Of a DNA stretch of 64,000 bases, positions 13,046-50,600 are shown piece after piece. A model generated the notes under the pieces. That model saw only the letters and a list, made by a program, of their open reading frames with translations. It did not search any database and was not told the origin of the DNA. The translations under genes and the position numbers were made by a program. Location: the NCBI RefSeq assembly GCF_044704955.1, contig NC_091999.1:16802001-16866000 (forward strand). The letters are read 5' to 3'. Source of the DNA: Pristiophorus japonicus. Its lineage: Eukaryota. The number at the start of each line of letters is the position of its first letter. Positions within the stretch are counted from its first letter, which is position 1.

Positions 13046-13678
13046 TAGTCTATAAATGTAAGCTTTTTCCTTTGTTCGTTAGCGTGGAGATACCCATGCC
13101 TGGTTACACGTGCTCCATCTGTGACTATACTCCACTTGTAAATTGATTAGAAACAGAAGATTTAATTCGTTACGACTCAAGTGAACAAACAGAAGTTTGT
13201 TTTAAATCAACACTTGGTTCTTTTTTTGAAGTTTGGAAATTCAAAACTTCCTTAGGAATTAAAAATCCGTCAAAACAGCTGAAATCATTCGAAAAGCTAT
13301 CATTATTAACCTTGAATAAAACATAGCTTAGTTCATTTCAATAGCTCCTATTTAATTCGGAACAATATTTTATTAACTAAACAATACAGAACAGATAAAA
13401 TAAAACAAAGTAGCACATGCTTACAGAACACAGTAAATTACATCATTGTTACCTTCAGGTGTTTTTCCAAATGACTAAAAATACTGAATATGAGTGGAGA
13501 AACATTGATTCAATTTGCTTAAATGTGAAAAAACAAAGTGCTTTGAGAAATTTCAAACCAAGTATCAGGCACATGGCAACCGTAACTTCAAGGCTGAAGT
13601 TTATCTTTACCGCAGGGAAAGGGTTCACAGCCAGATAGGGAATGGAAGACCAGCAGGAAGAGTAGAGCAAGGAAGGTA

Positions 13679-14341
13679 GTGCAGGGGTCCCCTGCGGTCA
13701 TCCCCCTGCAAAACAGATACACCGCTTTGGGTACTGTTGAGGGGAATGACTCATCAGGGGAGGGCAGCAGCAGCCAAGTTCATGGCACCGTGGCTGGCTC
13801 TGCTGCACAGGAGGGCAAGAAAAAGAGTGGGAGAGCGATAGTGATAGGGGATTCAATTGTGAGGGGAATAGATAGGCGTTTCTGCGGCCGCAACCGAGAC
13901 TCCAGGATGGTATGTTGCCTCCCTGGTGCAAGGGTCAAGGATGTCTCGGAGCGGGTGCAGGACATTCTGAAATGGGAGGGAGAACAGCCAGTTGTCGTGG
14001 TGCACATTGGTACCAACGACATAGGCAAAAAAAGGGATGAGGTCCTACGAAACGAATTTAAGGAGCTAGGAGCTAAATTAAAAAGTAGGACCTCAAAAGT
14101 AGTAATCTCGGGATTGCTACCAGTGCCACGTGATAGTCAGAGTAGGAATCGCAGGATAGCGCAGATGAATACGTGGCTTGAGCAGTGGTGCAGCAGGGAG
14201 GGATTCAAATTCCTGGGGCATTGGGACCGGTTCTGGGGGAGGTGGGACCAGTACAAACCGGACGGTCTGCACCTGGGCAGGACTGGAACCAATGTCCTCG
14301 GGGGAGTGTTTGCTAGTGCTGTTGGTGAGGATTTAAACTAA
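13679..14341 (+). CDS. CR1 ORF1 C-terminal SGNH/GDSL esterase domain (N-terminus missing)
   Basis: IVIGDS, HIGTND and DGLHL blocks of the SGNH hydrolase fold, known in CR1-type ORF1p. Confidence 0.93.
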   Translation: MQGSPAVIPLQNRYTALGTVEGNDSSGEGSSSQVHGTVAGSAAQEGKKKSGRAIVIGDSIVRGIDRRFCGRNRDSRMVCCLPGARVKDVSERVQDILKWEGEQPVVVVHIGTNDIGKKRDEVLRNEFKELGAKLKSRTSKVVISGLLPVPRDSQSRNRRIAQMNTWLEQWCSREGFKFLGHWDRFWGRWDQYKPDGLHLGRTGTNVLGGVFASAVGEDLN

Positions 14342-17325
14342 TATGGCAGGGGGATGGGAACCAATGCAGGGAGACAGAGGGAAACAAAAAGGAGCCAAAA
14401 GCAAAAGACAGAAAGGAGAGGAGGAAAAGTGTAGGGCAGAGAAACCCAAGGCAAAGAACAAAAAGGGCCACTGTACAGCAAAATTCTAAAAGGACAAAGG
14501 GTGTTAATAAAACAAGCCTGAAGGCTTTGTGTCTTAATGCAAGGAGTATCCGCAATAAGGTGGATGAATTAATTGTGCAAATAGATGTTAACAAATATGA
14601 TGTGATTGGGATTACGGAGACGTGGCTCCAGGATGATCAGGGCTGGGAACTCAACATTCAGGGGTATTCAACATTCAGGAAGGATAGAATAAAAGGAAAA
14701 GGAGGTGGGGTAGCATTGCTGGTTAAAGAGGAGATTAATGCAATAGTTAGGAAAGACATTAGCTTGGATGATGTGGAATCTATATGGGTAGAGCTGCAGA
14801 ACACCAAAGGGCAAAAAACGTTAGTAGGAGTTGTGTACAGACCTCCAAACAGTAATAGGGATGTTGGGGAGGGCATCAAACTGGAAATTAGGGGTGCATG
14901 CAATAAAGGTGTAGCAGTTATAATGGGTGACTTTAATATGCACATAGATTGGGCTAGCCAAACTGGAAGCAATACGGTGGAGGAGGATTTCCTGGAGTGC
15001 ATAAGGGATGGTTTTCTAGACCAATATGTTGAGGAACCAACTAGGGGGGAGGCCATCTTAGACTGGGTGTTGTGTAATGAGAGAGGATTAATTAGCAATC
15101 TCATTGTGCGAGGCCCCTTGGGGAAGAGTGACCATAATATGGTGGAATTCTGCATTAGGATGGAGAATGAAACAGTAAATTCAGAGACCATGGTCCAGAA
15201 CTTAAAGAAGGGTAACTTTGAAGGTATGAGGCGAGAATTGGCTAGGATAGATTGGCGAATGATACTTAGGGGGTTGACTGTGGATGGGCAATGGCAGACA
15301 TTTAGAGACCGCATGGATGAAGTACAACAATTGTACATTCCTGTCTGGCGTAAAAATAAAAAGGGGAAGGTGGCTCAACCGTGGCTATCTAGGGAAATCA
15401 GGGATAGTATTAAAGGCAAGGAAGTGGCATACAAATTGGCCAGAAATAGCAGCGAACCTGGGGACTGGGAGAAATTTAGAACTCAGCAGAGGAGGACAAA
15501 GGGTTTGATTAGGACAGGGAAAATGGAGTACGAGAAGAAGCTTGCAGGGAACATTAAGGCGGATTGCAAAAGTTTCTATAGGTATGTAAAGAGAAAAAGG
15601 TTGGTGAAGACAAACGTAGGTCCCCTGCAGTCAGAATCAGGGGAAGTCATAACGGGGAACAAAGAAATGGCGGATCAATTGAACAAGTACTTTGGTTCGG
15701 TATTCACTAAGGAGGATACAAACAACCTTCCGGATATAAAAGGGGTCAGAGGGTCTAGTAAGGAAGAGGAACTGAGGGAAATCTTTATTAGTCGGGAAAT
15801 TGTGTTGGGGAAATTGATGGGATTGAAGGCAGATAAATCCCCAGGGCCTGATGGCCTGCATCCTAGAGTACTTAAGGAGGTGGCCTTGGAAATAGCGGAT
15901 GCATTGACAGTCATTTTCCAACATTCCATTGACTCTGGATCAGTTCCTATGGAGTGGAGGGTAGCCAATGTAACCCCACTTTTTAAAAAAGGAGGGAGAG
16001 AGAAAACAGGGAATTATAGACCGGTCAGCCTGACCTCAGTAGTGGGTAAAATGATGGAATCAATTATTAAGGATGTCATAGCAGTGCATCTGGAAAATGG
16101 TGACATGATAGGTCCAAGTCAGCATGGATTTGTGAAAGGGAAATCATGCTTGACAAATCTTCTGGAATTTTTTGAGGATGTTTCCAGTAAAGTGGACAAA
16201 GGAGAACCAGTTGATGTGGTATATTTGGACTTTCAGAAGGCTTTCGACAAGGTCCCACACAAGAGATTAATGTGCAAAGTTAAAGCACATGGGATTGGGG
16301 GTAGTGTGCTGACGTGGATTGAGAACTGGTTGTCAGACAGGAAGCAAAGAGTAGGAGTAAACGGGTACTTTTCAGAATGGCAGGCAGTGACTAGTGGAGT
16401 GCCGCAAGGTTCTGTGCTGGGGCCCCAGCTGTTTACATTGTACATTAATGATTTAGACGAGGGGATTAAATGCAGTATCTCCAAATTTGCGGATGATACT
16501 AAGTTGGGTGGCAGTGTGAGCTGCGAGGAGGATGCTATTAGGCTGCAGAGTGACTTGGATAGGTTAGGTGAGTGGGCAAATGCATGGCAGATGAAGTATA
16601 ATGTGGATAAATGTGAGGTTATCCACTTTGGTGGTAAAAACAGAGAGACAGACTATTATCTGAATGGTGACAGATTAGGAAAAGGGAAGGTGCAACGAGA
16701 CCTGGGTGTCATGGTACATCAGTCATTGAAGGTTGGCATGCAGGTACAGCAGGCGGTTAAGAAAGCAAATGGCATGTTGGCCTTCATAGCGAGGGGATTT
16801 GAATACAGGGGCAGGGAGGTGTTGCTACAGTTGTATAGGGCCTTGGTGAGGCCACACCTGGAGTATTGTGTACAGTTTTGGTCTCCTAACTTGAGGAAGG
16901 ACATTCTTGCTATTGAGGGAGTGCAGCGAAGGTTCACCAGACTGATTCCCGGGATGGCGGGACTGACCTATCAAGAAAGATTGGATCAATTGGGCTTGTA
17001 TTCACTGGAGTTCAGAAGAATGAGAGGGGACCTCATAGAAACGTTTAAAATTCTGACGGGTTTAGACAGGTTAGATGCAGAAAGAATGTTCCCAATGTTG
17101 GGGAAGTCCAGAACCAGGGGTCACAGTCTGAGGATAAGGGGTAAGCCATTTAGGACCGAGATGAGGAGAAACTTCTTCACCCAGAGAGTGGTGAACCTGT
17201 GGAATTCTCTACCACAGAAAGTAGTTGAGGCCAATTCACTAAATATATTCAAAAGGGAGTTAGATGAAGTCCTTACTACTCGGGGGATCAAGGGTTATGG
17301 CGAGAAAGCAGGAAGGGGGTACTGA
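14329..17325 (+). CDS. CR1 ORF2: APE endonuclease plus reverse transcriptase (frame open from 14329; no AUG before the endonuclease core)
   Basis: LNARS, ITETW, YRPP, MGDFN, SDHN (APE); [21 protein letters not shown] (RT). No stops between 14329 and the terminator at 17325. Confidence 0.97.
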   Translation, partial: GFKLIWQGDGNQCRETEGNKKEPKAKDRKERRKSVGQRNPRQRTKRATVQQNSKRTKGVNKTSLKALCLNARSIRNKVDELIVQIDVNKYDVIGITETWLQDDQGWELNIQGYSTFRKDRIKGKGGGVALLVKEEINAIVRKDISLDDVESIWVELQNTKGQKTLVGVVYRPPNSNRDVGEGIKLEIRGACNKGVAVIMGDFNMHIDWASQTGSNTVEEDFLECIRDGFLDQYVEEPTRGEAILDWVLCNERGLISNLIVRGPLGKSDHNMVEFCIRMENETVNSETMVQNLKKGNFEGMRRELARIDWRMILRGLTVDGQWQTFRDRMDEVQQLYIPVWRKNKKGKVAQPWLSREIRDSIKGKEVAYKLARNSSEPGDWEKFRTQQRRTKGLIRTGKMEYEKKLAGNIKADCKSFYRYVKRKRLVKTNVGPLQSESGEVITGNKEMADQLNKYFGSVFTKEDTNNLPDIKGVRGSSKEEELREIFISREIVLGKLMGLKADKSPGPDGLHPRVLKEVALEIADALTVIFQHSIDSGSVPMEWRVANVTPLFKKGGREKTGNYRPVSLTSVVGKMMESIIKDVIAVHLENGDMIGPSQHGFVKGKSCLTNLLEFFEDVSSKVDKGEPVDVVYLDFQKAFDKVPHKRLMCKVKAHGIGGSVLTWIENWLSDRKQRVGVNGYFSEWQAVTSGVPQGSVLGPQLFTLYINDLDEGIKCSISKFADDTKLGGSVSCEEDAIRLQSDLDRLGEWANAWQMKYNVDKCEVIHFGGKNRETDYYLNGDRLGKGKVQRDLGVMVHQSLKVGMQVQQAVKKANGMLAFIARGFEYRGREVLLQLYRALVRPHLEYCVQFWSPNLRKDILAIEGVQRRFTRLIPGMAGLTYQERLDQLGLYSLEFRRMRGDLIETFKILTGLDRLDAERMFPMLGKSRTRGHSLRIRGKPFRTEMRRNFFTQRVVNLWNSLPQKVVEANSLNIFKRELDEVLTTRGIKGYGEKAGRGY

Positions 17326-19033
17326 AGTTTCATGTTCAGCCATGAACTCATTGAATGGCGGTGCAGGCTAGAAGGGCTGAATGGCCTGCTCCTGCACCTA
17401 TTTTCTATGTTTCTATGTTTCTATGTTTCTATGTAAAACAAACTCGCCTGACTTTCAGTGTTGCACAGCTTGCCCCAGTCAAAATATACCAACAGCGTCT
17501 TTAACTTCAAAATGTAAATCATAAAGATCCCCTGCTACTAGTTCCACAATCTGAATTGAAATGAACATACTGAACATATCCACACTTGCTTAAAACTCCC
17601 AACATCCAAGACAACAAAGGGTTAAACGGCTTTTAGCTCCATGCAGAGAAAAGTGGGTGAAGCTAAAACAAACATAACAGACGCTTTTTTCAAAGACAGA
17701 CTTTCAGACAAAAGGAATACTGTAAATTCTTAAACATTCATGGTCAGGAAAACTTCCACTCTAATACAATTCACACAAACTGAAATTCCAGCATCCTTTC
17801 AGGTTCCTTTCACTCAGTAATCTTGTGCTTTATTTTTCTCGGCACAGAAACTGACAGATTCAGTGTTGGTTTCAACTTCAAGTTTCCTTTTTTCGCCTTT
17901 TAAATTGTCATCTGAGCAACTTATTCCCTCATTCTGTTTTTTCCTTCCTTTGCTGAGTTCTCGGCTGGGTTAACTTGCAGCTTAGATCTTTTTCCCTCTC
18001 TGTCTCGCCTGTTCCTTATGCTTCTCCTCTCTCACCTGTTAATTTCTCAAGTCTGTGCGCAGAGGTGGGTTGCATAAGCCAATATAAGCTTCCCTTTGTC
18101 AAATTGGGACTTGCCCTCGTCAATTTGACTCTGGACCCAATCGACCGCTTTCGGTATGAGTCACCTTGTGGACTCGCGAGGAATGATGGCAAGTGAGTGG
18201 TAGGGAGCAGCTTCCCATGTTCATTGTCCCTGGCACGTTCTGTTAGGTTAGCCATGCTTAGCAAACCCATCGCTCAACTACTGGTAGGAGATTAGTCGTC
18301 CATCTCCCAGAGATTCTCCATCCTGGATTGATAGCCTGGCCAAGTAAAACTAATTGGCCACAGATCTCCGGACCCCAGTTCCACTGAACAAAATGTTGAT
18401 TAATTACTATCCGTCAAGTCAATTTGTTGAGTTTTTGGGTCTGTGCCAATTAACCCTTTCACGCCTAAGTTCAGAAAGCTTTGACTTAACTCATATTGGT
18501 GACAATAATTATATTTTATTCAGTGAAATTGAGAGACTACTATTCACCAAAACCCTCATCCCAACTCCTCTTGCTCCTCTGCTCTCCAACCATCTTCATC
18601 CCAACTCGTTTCACCCTTATTCTCCACCCTCACTTACCCCTCCTCTTAAACCCCTCTCATCTTCCATTCATTTCAATTGAAAGGAAACCGAGAGATTGTA
18701 CCAGTCAGGATTTGAAAGATATTTACAACAGATTCTACAGGTTCTTAAACTTATGGTCTTCCTATATTCTGTTCACGTGATCAGTTAGAAAACAGACATT
18801 CTCCTGTGAATACAGAGCTGGACGATTGGGCTGTGATGTGTTTACTTGTTCATCTTGGTGACTCTAAAGCTTTGCCAATTAATTAATTAATTGATGTAAT
18901 CGGTTTACTTGTTCATCTTTTGTTAAATACATTTCCTGAGTGGATTCAAATTAAAATTAAAACCAGTTTTGCAGCCATGATGCTCCATTCACACATCGAA
19001 GGTGAGCGAGATGCTGTGGGGCACACGCTAAGT

Positions 19034-19549: not shown

Positions 19550-20044
19550 CTGTAAAAGGAGTTTACAGATCTCATCACCATAAGTACAGGAAAAACATTC
19601 AAAACAGTAAATTCTAGTTTCTATGGAACATTTTTTCTTCTCTTGCTCCTCCAAAGCTGTAAATCGCTGCCTCCTCCCTGTGCTGAAATCCAAACCCATC
19701 GCACGTCTCAAGACATTTTATCCTCCACTCCCAGTTTTCCCCAGCAACTCTGGCTGGGTTCAGTTCTACACTCACTGGTTCACCTTCCTCTCCTCCCCTG
19801 ATGGTGCTGACTCTGGCTGGGTTCACTTCTATACTCACTGGGACCCTGAAGACCCAAGCACTCTGTGTTCATTTACAAAGATGGCCACACATGCGCTCTG
19901 CAGCTCGATGAACAGCGATAGCGATGCACAAACTTGCGGCGTTCCTTTACAAAGGCGGCCAACCTGGGCCTGTTCCTGTGCAATGTCCCGGAGCTGCAAA
20001 CGTGAGAGCTCTAGGTTCTTAGTCAGGGTTTACCACCAACACCA

Positions 20045-20802
20045 GTTACAAATGGGTATGATCTGATAGCCATTACAGAGACGTGGTTGCAAGGTGATCA
20101 AGACTGGGAACTTAACATTTCAGGGTACTTGACAATCCGGAGGGACAGACAGAAAAGAAAAGGAGGTGGGGTAGCTCTGATGATAAAGGATGGAATCACT
20201 GCCACAGTGAGAAACGATATTGGCTCAAATGATCAGGATGTTGAAACAGTTTTAGTTACCAACGGATGGCTATCTTTTCTCTTATGCGCTTTCCTCCTCA
20301 CTGGGATATATTTTTCTTGAGAGTTGTGAAATATCTCCTTAAATGTACACCAACCGTCCTACACTTTAATCTATTTTCACAGTCCACTTTGGCCAACTCA
20401 GCCCTCACCCCTTCATAGTCTCCTTTATTTAAGCCGAGTACGCTGGTTAGAGATCCTCCATCTGAATTTGAAATTGAATCATGCTACTCATTCCAACGGG
20501 ATCCTTTACAAGGAGATTGTTTATTAATCCTGTCTCATTACACAGGACCATATCTAAGATAGCCTGCCTCCTTGTTGGTTCCATTGCATACTGTTCAAGG
20601 AACCCATCCATTATGCACTCTATGAACTCTTCCTCAAGCCTACCTGACCAATTTGATTTGTCCAATCAATATGGAGGTTAAAATCAACTATGATTATTGC
20701 TGTTCCCTTTTTGCAAGCCCCCACTATTTCTTGATTTATACTTCGACCAACAGAGTTGCTACTGTTCGGGAGCTTATAGACTACACCCACCAAGTGACTT
20801 TT
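20045..20802. mobile_element. Two CR1 endonuclease fragments in opposite orientation (+ 20045-20253; - 20254-20802)
   Basis: ITETWLQGDQDWELNI on plus; LEEEFIECIMDGFLEQY on minus. Confidence 0.85.
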
Positions 20803-23800: not shown

Positions 23801-24645
23801 CTGTTGCCGCCTGCCTTTTGCATCCTTTCTTGGGGTTCTGTTCATCTGAGCTCTCAACCACTCTAACTAGCTCAGAGCCCTCTCCTGGGTTCCCATCCCC
23901 CTGCCAAGCTAGTTTAAAGCCCTTCCAACCGCACTATCAAAACCACCCGCGAGAACATTGGTCCCGTCTCTCTTGAGGTGTAACCTGTCCGACTTGTACA
24001 GATCACACCTACTCCAGAAGCGGTCCCAATTGTTCAGGAAACTAAAGCCCTCCCTCCTACACCAATGCCCCAGCCACGTATTTATCTGACTAGCCTTCCT
24101 ATTTCTACCCTCACTAGTACGTGGCACTGGTGGTAATCCCGAGATTACCACCTTTGAGGTCCTTGCTTTCAATCTTACCCCTAGCTCCCTAAACTCAGCT
24201 TTCAGGACCTCACCCCTCTTTCTACCTATGTCGTTGGTACCAATGTGGACCACAACCACTGGCTATTCCCCTTCCCTCCCCAGAATGCCCTGCAGTCGCT
24301 CAGTTACATCATTGACCCTTGCACCAGGGAGGCAACACACCATCCTGATGTCACTTTTGCTGCCGCAGAAGCGCCGATCTGCTCCCCTAACTCTTGAATC
24401 TCCTATCACTATAGCCCTTCCCGTTTTCTTCCTCCCCCCCTGTGCAGCTGAGCCACCCACGGTGCTGTGGACTTGGCCCTGGCTGCACTCCCCAGAGTCA
24501 TCACCGCCATCGCCAGTAGTCAGAATAGAGTACTGGTTTGAGAGCGGGATAGTCTCAGGGGACTTCTGCACAACCTGCCTGGCCATACTCTTGTGCGCGA
24601 CGGTCACCAATTCCCTATCCTCCTGTACCCTTTTAATCTGTGGGG
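20803..24645 (-). mobile_element. Near full-length older CR1 LINE (ORF1 esterase plus frameshifted ORF2)
   Basis: ORF1 pieces 24263-24610 (IVIGDS) and 23909-24259 (HIGTND); ORF2 pieces from 23633 to 20938; 3' UTR at 20803-20935. Confidence 0.96.
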
Positions 24646-24877: not shown

Positions 24878-25645
24878 CTGGCCTCCTGACTGCAGCCCTT
24901 TGTACTCCCGCGTCCACTCAGGTCTTGTGATGTTGGCCTCCTCCAGACTGTGGCCCTTTGTACTCCCGCGTCCACTCAGGTCTTGTGATGCTGGCCTCCT
25001 CCAGACTGTGGCCCTTTGTACTCCCGCGTCCACTCAGGTCTTGTGATGCTGGCCTCCTCCAGACTGTGGCCCTTTGTACTCCCACGTCCACTCAGGTCTT
25101 GTGATGTTGGCCTCCTCCAGACTGTGGCCCTTTGTACTCCCGCGTCCACTCAGGTCTTGTGATGCTGGCCTCCTGACTGCAGTCCTTTGTACTCCCACGT
25201 CCACTCAGGTCTCGTGATGCTGGCCTCCTCCTGACTGCTGCCCTTTGTACTCCCGCGCTCGCTCAGGTCTCACGATGCTGGCCTCCTCCTGACTGCAGCC
25301 CTTTGTACTCCCGCGCTCGCTCAGGTCTCATGATGCTGGCCTCCTCCTGACTGCCGCCCTTTGTACTCCCGCGTCTGCTCAGGTCTCGCGATGCTGGCCT
25401 CCTCCAGACTGTGGCCCTTTGTACTCCCATGTCCGCTCAGGTCTCGCGATGCTGGCCTCCTCCAGACTGTGGCCCTTTGTACTCCCGCGTCCGCTCAGGT
25501 CTCACGATGCTGGCCTCCTCCAGACTGTGGCCCTTTGTACTCCCGCTCTCGCTCAGGTCTTACGATGCTGGCCTCCTCCTGACTGCTGCCCTTTGTACTC
25601 CCGTGCTCGCTCAGGTCTCACGATGCTGGCCTCCTCCAGACTGTT
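24878..25645. repeat. 58-bp CpG-containing minisatellite x~13
   Basis: Unit GCTGGCCTCCTCCAGACTGTGGCCCTTTGTACTCCCGCGTCCACTCAGGTCTTGTGAT. Confidence 0.96.
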
Positions 25646-27800: not shown

Positions 27801-28270
27801 TTAGAACCCAGCCAGAGCCAGCACCTTCAGGGGAAGAGAGGGAGGGGAACCAGTGGGTGTAGAACTGACCCAGCCAGTGTCAGCACCTTCAGGGGAGGAG
27901 AGGGAGGGGAACCAGTGAGTGTAGAACTGAACCCAACCAGAGTCAGCACCTTCAGGGGAGGAGAGGGAGGGGATCCAGTGAGTGTAGAACTGAACCCAGC
28001 CAGAGTCAGCACCTTCAGGGGAGGAGAGGGAGGGGATCCAGTGAGTGTAGAACTGAACCCAGCCAGAGTCAGAACCTTCAGGGGAGGAGAGGGAGGGGAT
28101 CCAGTGAGTGTAGAACTGAACCCAGCCAGAGTCAGCACCTTCAGGGGAGGAGAGGGAGGGGAACCAGTCAGTGTAGAACTGAACCCAGCCAGTGTCAGCA
28201 CTTTCAGCGGAGAAGAGGGAGGGGAACCAGTGAGTGTAGAACTGAATCCAGCCAGAGTCAGCACCTTCAG
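27801..28270. repeat. 63-bp minisatellite x~7.5 (GTGAGTGTAGAACTGAACCCAGCCAGAGTCAGCACCTTCAGGGGAGG...)
   Basis: Tandem copies; same core at 19745-19840 (minus) and 32897-33362. Confidence 0.96.
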
Positions 28271-50400: not shown

Positions 50401-50600
50401 GGCTGTTTTTTTTTAACACCCTTTGTCCTTTTAGAATTTTGCTGTACAGTGGCCCTTTTTGTTCTTTGCCTTGGGTTTCTCTGCCCTCCACTTTTCCTCA
50501 TCTCCTTTCTGTCTTTTGCTTTTGCCTCCTTTTTGTTACCCTCTGTCTCCCTGCATTGGTTCCCATCCCCCTGCCATATTAGTTTAACTCCTCCCCAACA
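47488..50600 (-). mobile_element. Young CR1 LINE (ORF2 with few frameshifts), 5'-truncated just upstream of the ORF1 stop
   Basis: Translation very close to the 14527-17325 protein; (TAGAAACA)n tail at 47488-47520. Confidence 0.97.

Follow-up and report, generated by a model that had tools for sequence, protein, structure and literature searches.

A candidate programmed -1 ribosomal frameshift at the ORF1–ORF2 junction of CR1 retrotransposons with an esterase ORF1

How the second open reading frame (ORF) of a long interspersed nuclear element (LINE) is translated is a long-standing question, which has so far been answered by reinitiation in L1 and SART1. A CR1-type LINE in a stretch of Pristiophorus japonicus DNA raises this question again. 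The stretch (contig NC_091999.1, positions 16,802,001 to 16,866,000), hereafter the window, is 64,000 nucleotides (nt) long; coordinates count from its first letter and refer to the forward strand unless stated otherwise. ORF1 of the element ends on a slippery heptamer, from which ORF2 is open in the -1 frame. Comparison of this junction with its relatives indicates that CR1 ORF2 is very probably made by programmed -1 ribosomal frameshifting, which would yield an ORF1–ORF2 fusion.

The window element is a 5'-truncated CR1-type LINE at about 13600-17434. Its ORF1 (13598..14341), shorter by this truncation than the 315 amino acids (aa) of the family, encodes an SGNH/GDSL esterase domain (PF13472, E 2.5e-14 by Pfam) and ends in ...GEDLN*. 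The closest solved structure is PDB 4c1b (E 3.4e-30), and the closest named proteins come from cartilaginous fishes. ORF2 (14329..17325, 998 open codons from stop to stop) begins with a variable basic linker (codons 1 to ~62), followed by an apurinic/apyrimidinic (AP) endonuclease and a reverse transcriptase (RT); Pfam finds the endonuclease and RT domains and no protease domain. The 3' tail (17398..17434) consists of 8-nt repeats (CTATGTTT x4.8). The short-tandem-repeat tail, the 5' truncation and a dispersed high copy number mark the element as a LINE, and its domain order, esterase ORF1 and 8-nt tail repeats are those of canonical vertebrate CR1 with an esterase (type IV) ORF1. The assignment to CR1 is based on the ORF1 homologues and the tail, as the endonuclease tree (14 rows) holds no reference clades.

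ORF1 of the window copy ends in GAT TTA AAC TAA, so that the heptamer T_TTA_AAC (14332..14338) is in X_XXY_YYZ phase directly before the stop codon (14339..14341). The stop is TAA or TAG in every lineage read, and its TA is invariant. A 10-nt spacer (14339..14348), fixed in length and variable in sequence, leads to an invariant GGGGG run (14349..14353) within GCAGGGGGATGGG (14346-14358), which is a candidate 3' stimulator; in the -1 frame, two of these Gs occupy synonymous third codon positions. An earlier sequence-only reading of the window had described the heptamer in this position and phase, ORF2 exactly in the -1 frame and open from 14329 into the endonuclease, and a G-tract block starting 6 nt downstream, and all three hold, the first GG lying 6 nt after the heptamer. 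It had also assigned the ATG at 14343 to a third frame that closes early. The ORF from this ATG (14343..14489) indeed ends after 48 codons; lineages B, C, I and II, which are introduced below, lack this ATG, and it is not the ORF2 start. Public gene models P0276 and P0282 start ORF2 at the third-frame ATG (MAGGWEP...), probably because annotation lacked a true start to choose. The proposed opening of the -1 frame after a TGA at 14326-28 applies to the window copy, whereas G stands at 14326 in the majority of copies; the frame of 56 of 70 family copies opens 5 codons farther upstream, where none has an ATG.

In the proposed mechanism, most ribosomes would stop at 14339 and release the ORF1 protein (ORF1p), and a minority would slip by -1, with tRNA-Leu and tRNA-Asn moving in tandem on U_UUA_AAC. 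Reading would then resume at CTA. Because Leu and Asn would be decoded before the shift, the standard model predicts the product ...EDLN-LIWQGDGN..., and the transframe peptide EDL/FKLIWQGDGN suggested earlier is wrong for tandem slippage. The full-length fusion would comprise about 315+995 aa, or about 1,310 aa. Such slippage would set a low ratio of ORF2 to ORF1, as in Gag-Pol. Because ORF2 has no protease domain, the fusion would not be self-cleaved.

The 10-mer TTTAAACTAA occurs once in the 64-kb window against 0.18 expected, and 15 of 100 shuffles have one. Since this single occurrence is weak by itself, the case rests on conservation; and since the nearest 40 scored copies are in addition 99-100% identical, distant relatives were sought. 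The window itself holds two more junctions. One (23888..23921, reverse strand) belongs to a diverged copy of lineage B, with an ORF1 68% identical, T_TTA_AAC TAG, the same G run and no ATG after the ORF1 stop. The other (50560..50591, reverse strand) belongs to a 5'-truncated copy of family A and carries the variant G_TTA_AAC. The set from the same genome comprises 175 loci, of which 155 were anchored on ORF1 minus its last eight residues and 20 lack ORF1. It yields 124 different junctions, which fall into lineage A, lineage A2 (84% identical in ORF1 DNA), lineage B (74%) and the old lineage C (58-64%). T_TTA_AAC or G_TTA_AAC is present in 116 of the 124; of the other eight, two have deletions, one is mis-anchored and the rest differ by a single base. 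Along the family tree (111 copies), the X base toggles from T to G and back to T, and the other six heptamer bases are constant.

The phase is retained together with the heptamer. The distance from the heptamer to NARS, an endonuclease motif, is 204 nt in A and A2, 252 nt in B and, counted in majority columns, 213 in C, each a multiple of three. Heptamer and NARS are in phase in 63/69 copies of A, 12/16 of A2, 14/17 of B and 6/17 of C. In many decayed copies of lineage C (loci L061-L080), the G run after the slip site is expanded or contracted, and its change in length breaks the frame. The -1 frame is open in six long linkers, with a chance of openness of 0.001-0.17; replacement changes exceed synonymous changes in the linker, yet the frame stays open. 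The endonuclease fragment at 20040-20270, used to search the same genome, matched 20 loci, none with a junction.

Deeper relatives come from an endonuclease-alignment scan that was blind to the heptamer. It gave 35 loci (L233-L267) inside prokaryote assemblies; they hold animal LINE DNA, 20 of them in one record set of a metagenome-assembled genome, and are ascribed to host contamination. In lineages I, II and III (about 40% identity), T_TTA_AAC TAG stands in -1 phase, and no Met precedes NARS. Lineage I comprises 20 loci, 15 with TTTAAAC-TAG, one with TTTAAAG and four without a junction; lineage II has two loci, one copy carrying a 1-nt deletion in the G run, and lineage III has two loci with a junction. 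ORF1 is 35-39% identical to that of the window copy in lineages I and II, and one element of lineages I-III retains an intact ORF2 of 962 aa. When six deep lineages are compared without gaps over 180 nt, only the heptamer with its adjoining TA (offsets -7 to +1), GGGGG (+10 to +14) and two stray sites are invariant. The nearby DGLHL motif is free to vary at its synonymous sites; given Leu-Asn, T+TTA+AAC would arise by chance with a probability of 0.017 (C), 0.038, 0.038 and 0.062, each for one lineage. Judged by its codons, the heptamer is conserved beyond coding need. Heptamer and phase are conserved well beyond the window copies, into distant lineages.

In lineages IV and V, ORF1 ends in FLV*, and a T_TTT_TTA heptamer, another classic slip site, of the type of human immunodeficiency virus type 1 (HIV-1), stands in -1 phase. 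A hairpin of 8-9 bp lies 11 nt downstream of it (z -2.9 and -2.1). In the T_TTT_TTA elements L248:480-531 and L235:597-648, the hairpin arms differ between the two and pairing is retained. Loci L253-L255, whose junction is readable, have a different ORF1 and no such heptamer site. Contigs of three other organisms align with the window copy up to 14361-63 and then diverge. Scans of viral contigs and a genome-contig scan using tetrapod ORF1 gave no match, and in a metagenome scan the matches were 57 distant loci, with no vertebrate CR1 among them.

At the protein level, 85 ORF1 homologues were collected, of which 37 are truncated or lack the motif and were left unscored. The 48 scorable tails end in LN (41), IN (1) or, in six teleost proteins, TI; since these six are esterase ORF1s, the esterase fold needs no LN. 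Among ORF1s with a 26-aa tail, L stands at -2 in 64/69 and N at -1 in 66/69, and the preceding eight positions agree in 16-44 of 69. The labelled hosts of LN-ending ORF1s are chimaera, sharks, rays, sturgeon, eel, elephantfish, frog, lizards, snake, turtles and birds. Gene models contain -1-frame peptides that begin FKLDSKGEG in stork (96 codons to NARS), VKLEEEGTG in frog (51), FKLNLQGAG in ray and FKLGNLG in turtle. FKL and VKL would be the -1-frame products of T_TTA_AAC and G_TTA_AAC, respectively, and G-x-G recurs at -1-frame codons 7-9 in the stork, frog and ray models. These tetrapod and ray gene models are predictions, some of which have a Met in the linker. A further 138 ORF1 representatives gave 66 scorable tails, with 29 LN, 11 GN and others varied. 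Two proteins under bacterial labels (P0007, P0288) are ascribed to host contamination.

Several observations weigh against frameshifting. In-frame AUGs before NARS are found in 54/63 copies of lineage A (usually, not solely, at codon 30), 11/12 of A2 (codon 20), 11/14 of B (codon 58) and, at one column, 12/19 of C (codon 44). The earlier statement that no in-frame ATG precedes LNARS therefore stands for the branch of the window copy (65 exact matches) and fails for the family, with its 54 of 63 in-phase copies. The comparative support for the proposed fusion is strong, but one of the refuting conditions named in the sequence-only reading, an in-frame AUG upstream of LNARS, thus applies in part, to most family copies. 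The window copy has its first in-frame Met at codon ~198, after LNARS, and codon 30 of its linker (14419..14421) reads AGG, as in the rest of its branch, where most older copies have ATG. This branch, which has lost the AUG, is the tree's youngest tip (0.2% divergence among the 30 loci read), and its stem carries 8 synonymous against 2 replacement changes in ORF2. However, it accounts for 65 of about 20,000 junction copies and could have been mobilised in trans; the changes on its stem are not ordered relative to the loss of the AUG, and the variants shared inside it (one synonymous, one replacement) are uninformative. In the decayed lineage C, only 6/17 single copies are in phase. As mutual relatives, lineages I, II and III are not fully independent, and support from tetrapods consists of proteins and gene models, not DNA. 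Nested folding, without explicit folding of pseudoknots, gives no conserved hairpin after T_TTA_AAC, and the fold z values after the heptamer in lineages I-III are -0.8, -0.8 and +1.4. Finally, the usual spacer between slip site and stimulator is 5-9 nt (PMC7618472), shorter than the 10 nt here.

The AUGs give most weight to the alternative that ORF2 is a separate protein, translated by termination-reinitiation at a linker AUG or AUG-independently as in L1, with the conserved block serving reinitiation. Most copies of four lineages of the same genome have such an AUG, SART1 is established to reinitiate (PMC3708506), and for L1 the favoured mode is initiation independent of an AUG (PMC5009743). 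Three unnamed ORF2 calls (P0277, P0291, P0300) begin 4-5 codons after the slip site, their start codons not being seen. However, the position of the linker AUG is not conserved (codons 20, 30, 44 and 58), a 65-codon linker of the same composition has an AUG with a chance expectation of 0.55, and there is none before NARS in lineages I, II, III and V or in the youngest branch. Among 38 ORF2 homologues, the first Met lies 14-98 residues before NARS, and in none of the classes listed for 119 copies does the -1 frame contain an AUG before the heptamer. L1 and SART1 share with CR1 the problem of a second ORF on a bicistronic LINE RNA, but both reinitiate: in L1 the two ORFs are separate, and in SART1 they meet in a UAAUG stop-start. 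The CR1 junction has no such overlap in the ORF2 frame, since the ATG of TAA T ATG falls in the third frame and is missing altogether from lineages B, C, I and II. Reinitiation moreover predicts neither an in-phase canonical heptamer, nor its exchange for T_TTT_TTA, nor a frame open back to the heptamer. It is therefore considered improbable.

Splicing would avoid the need for a start codon in the linker, if an acceptor CAG at 14347-49 joined an upstream AUG to ORF2 in a sub-genomic RNA. CAG/G does occur at an identical offset in A, B, I, II and III, but it has no polypyrimidine tract, and lineage C has no AG there. The sequence-only reading had named a splice acceptor as an alternative, and none of 30 copies examined out of 81 altered before the G run is a spliced retrocopy; they are 5' truncations, point variants and microhomology deletions. 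No joint to 14350 appears among 15 of 25 joints shown by contigs of four runs, and the same genome holds 20,247 unspliced junctions. This makes splicing the least credible of the rivals, hardly to be entertained. A minor-intron donor core (RTATCC) was also sought, and was rejected as it has no shared place in six lineages. The block might otherwise be conserved for a Leu-Asn C-terminal peptide or as a signal for ribonucleoprotein (RNP) packaging or reverse transcription, with ORF2 translated by other means. Protein termini can be constrained, and the G run could bind ORF1p for packaging. However, the identity of the codons (TTA, AAC), the preceding base and the following TA are fixed beyond the need of the peptide, related esterases end otherwise, and lineages IV and V end in FLV* yet retain a slippery heptamer in -1 phase, so that such a role in place of frameshifting is very unlikely.

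The stimulator is the least certain part of the frameshift explanation. The canonical arrangement, a pseudoknot or strong hairpin 5-9 nt downstream, was not found by nested folding, a hairpin (at 11 nt) occurring only in lineages IV and V. The window junction folds at -7.4 kcal/mol, with z of -3.6 in a 45-nt window and -1.6 to -1.9 in longer ones. The GGGGG run is instead an unstructured conserved motif about 10 nt downstream, of the kind found in arteriviruses. [quoted passage not shown] The four-tract, three-tier G-quadruplex (four G3 tracts) put forward in the sequence-only reading is rejected, as the pattern is present in 64/70 copies of A and in 0/15 of A2, 1/16 of B and 5/18 of C. A two-tier pattern is more widespread (64/70 A, 12/15 A2, 12/16 B, 14/18 C); in the deep lineages only five Gs are invariant. 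As the stimulator, a two-tier quadruplex is given a low probability. Pausing at the neighbouring stop, or a weak hairpin formed locally, is given about the same low weight. As a 2016 review had it, no natural G-quadruplex frameshift stimulator was known (PMC5009743).

Long-range pairing of the G block (14346-14356) with an exactly complementary 11-bp stretch of ORF1 (13699..13709), 650 nt apart, was also considered and not adopted, being lineage-limited and post hoc. In A and A2 the pairing is beaten by 0 of 100 shuffled probes and by 0-2 of 300 synonymous recodings. The result is mixed in C, where the complement is weak (2 and 67 of 300), and the pairing is absent in B (54/300), I and II; it forms in 1 of 8 whole-region folds. 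The complement is probably incidental, and long-range pairing is a doubtful stimulator, less likely than the quadruplex.

Other repeats and duplications surround these CR1 copies. A 58-bp tandem array of 13 copies (24882-25644) lies upstream of ORF1 of the lineage-B copy and is probably its 5' untranslated region. A 63-bp tandem repeat of at least 3 copies (27804-28000) extends beyond the scanned range. The segments 14150-14650, 20040-20270 and 23940-24500 have 100% identical inverted counterparts near G000:C23:46.5 Mb, two of these segments recur at several other places on C23, and the window thus lies in a segmental duplication.

The elements of the proposed junction are known from viruses. 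U_UUA_AAC is among the most shifty heptamers and is used by coronaviruses at 1a/1b, and G_UU(A) is the form of equine arteritis virus (PMC5009743). Both variants also occur in CR1, where, as at the viral sites, an upstream ORF would be fused to a polymerase ORF. CR1 differs in that no pseudoknot was found, in that the stop directly follows the heptamer, and in being a nuclear retrotransposon without long terminal repeats (non-LTR). The -2/-1 frameshift of PRRSV nsp2 is stimulated by nsp1beta/PCBP bound to a C-rich motif that is unstructured and follows a 10-nt spacer (PMC4937337, PMC7618472). CR1 resembles it in lacking an obvious 3' structure and in having a short homopolymer-rich motif at a 10-nt spacer, whereas its motif is G-rich and its heptamer is different. 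The HIV-1 gag-pol site has a stem-loop (PMC7618472). In retroviral gag-pol a structural ORF is fused to an enzyme ORF at a low ratio, and lineages IV and V likewise carry T_TTT_TTA and a hairpin; unlike gag-pol, CR1 has no protease in ORF2 by Pfam. Among LINEs, the Dictyostelium non-LTR elements TRE5-A and TRE3-A are stated, in a figure legend of a review, to require -1 frameshifting to express ORF2 (PMC5911963). They are LINEs with an AP endonuclease (APE-type), like CR1, but belong to another LINE clade and have another ORF1 type. The main text of a 2026 survey of the CR1 group contains neither 'frameshift' nor 'overlap' (PMC13343379). No report of CR1 frameshifting was found in searches of the literature on frameshifting in CR1 and LINEs, the classic CR1 papers lying outside this coverage. 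Two papers of 1997 on turtle and chicken CR1 reportedly describe ORFs that overlap or are closely spaced, and may already suggest a frameshift.

Other junctions raise the question of whether recoding extends through the group. Unnamed esterase ORF1s (P0130, P0144, P0148, P0160, P0162, P0165, P0195, P0196-P0205) have (Q)GN* ends or K-N at the matching position; GN ends are seen in 11 of the 66 scorable tails, nine of them QGN. These GN* and K-N ends would fit G_GGA_AAC and A_AAA_AAC, as candidates. In three of the 57 metagenome loci (L105, L119, L142), the esterase ORF1 ends in AAC TGA CTA CAC, and the endonuclease follows 71-73 codons on in the same frame. The UGA-CUA context is familiar from alphaviruses, and these loci are candidates for stop readthrough fusing ORF1 and ORF2. 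In L254 and L255, which have another ORF1 type, ORF2 is in frame beyond a single TGA CAA with no Met before the endonuclease start, which makes them a second readthrough candidate. A broader proposal, tentative and rather unlikely as a whole, is that esterase CR1s from invertebrates to birds all fuse their ORFs by means of an unstructured G run bound by a host protein or ORF1p, a G-rich mirror of the C-rich arterivirus signal, and that recoding is the rule in the CR1 group, through T_TTT_TTA with a hairpin, probably G_GGA_AAC, and UGA-CUA readthrough.

In most vertebrates, the dominant retrotransposons belong to the CR1 group (PMC13343379). Frameshifting in CR1, as predicted from its junctions, would be a known mechanism in a new setting, the principal clade of LINEs in most vertebrates, and its candidate stimulator is unusual. 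If it is true, the picture of the CR1 RNP would change, because the esterase domain would be attached to the endonuclease and RT. The annotation of ORF2 would have to be corrected, and the building of working CR1 reporter constructs would be guided by it. The junction may also supply a natural G-run frameshift stimulator.

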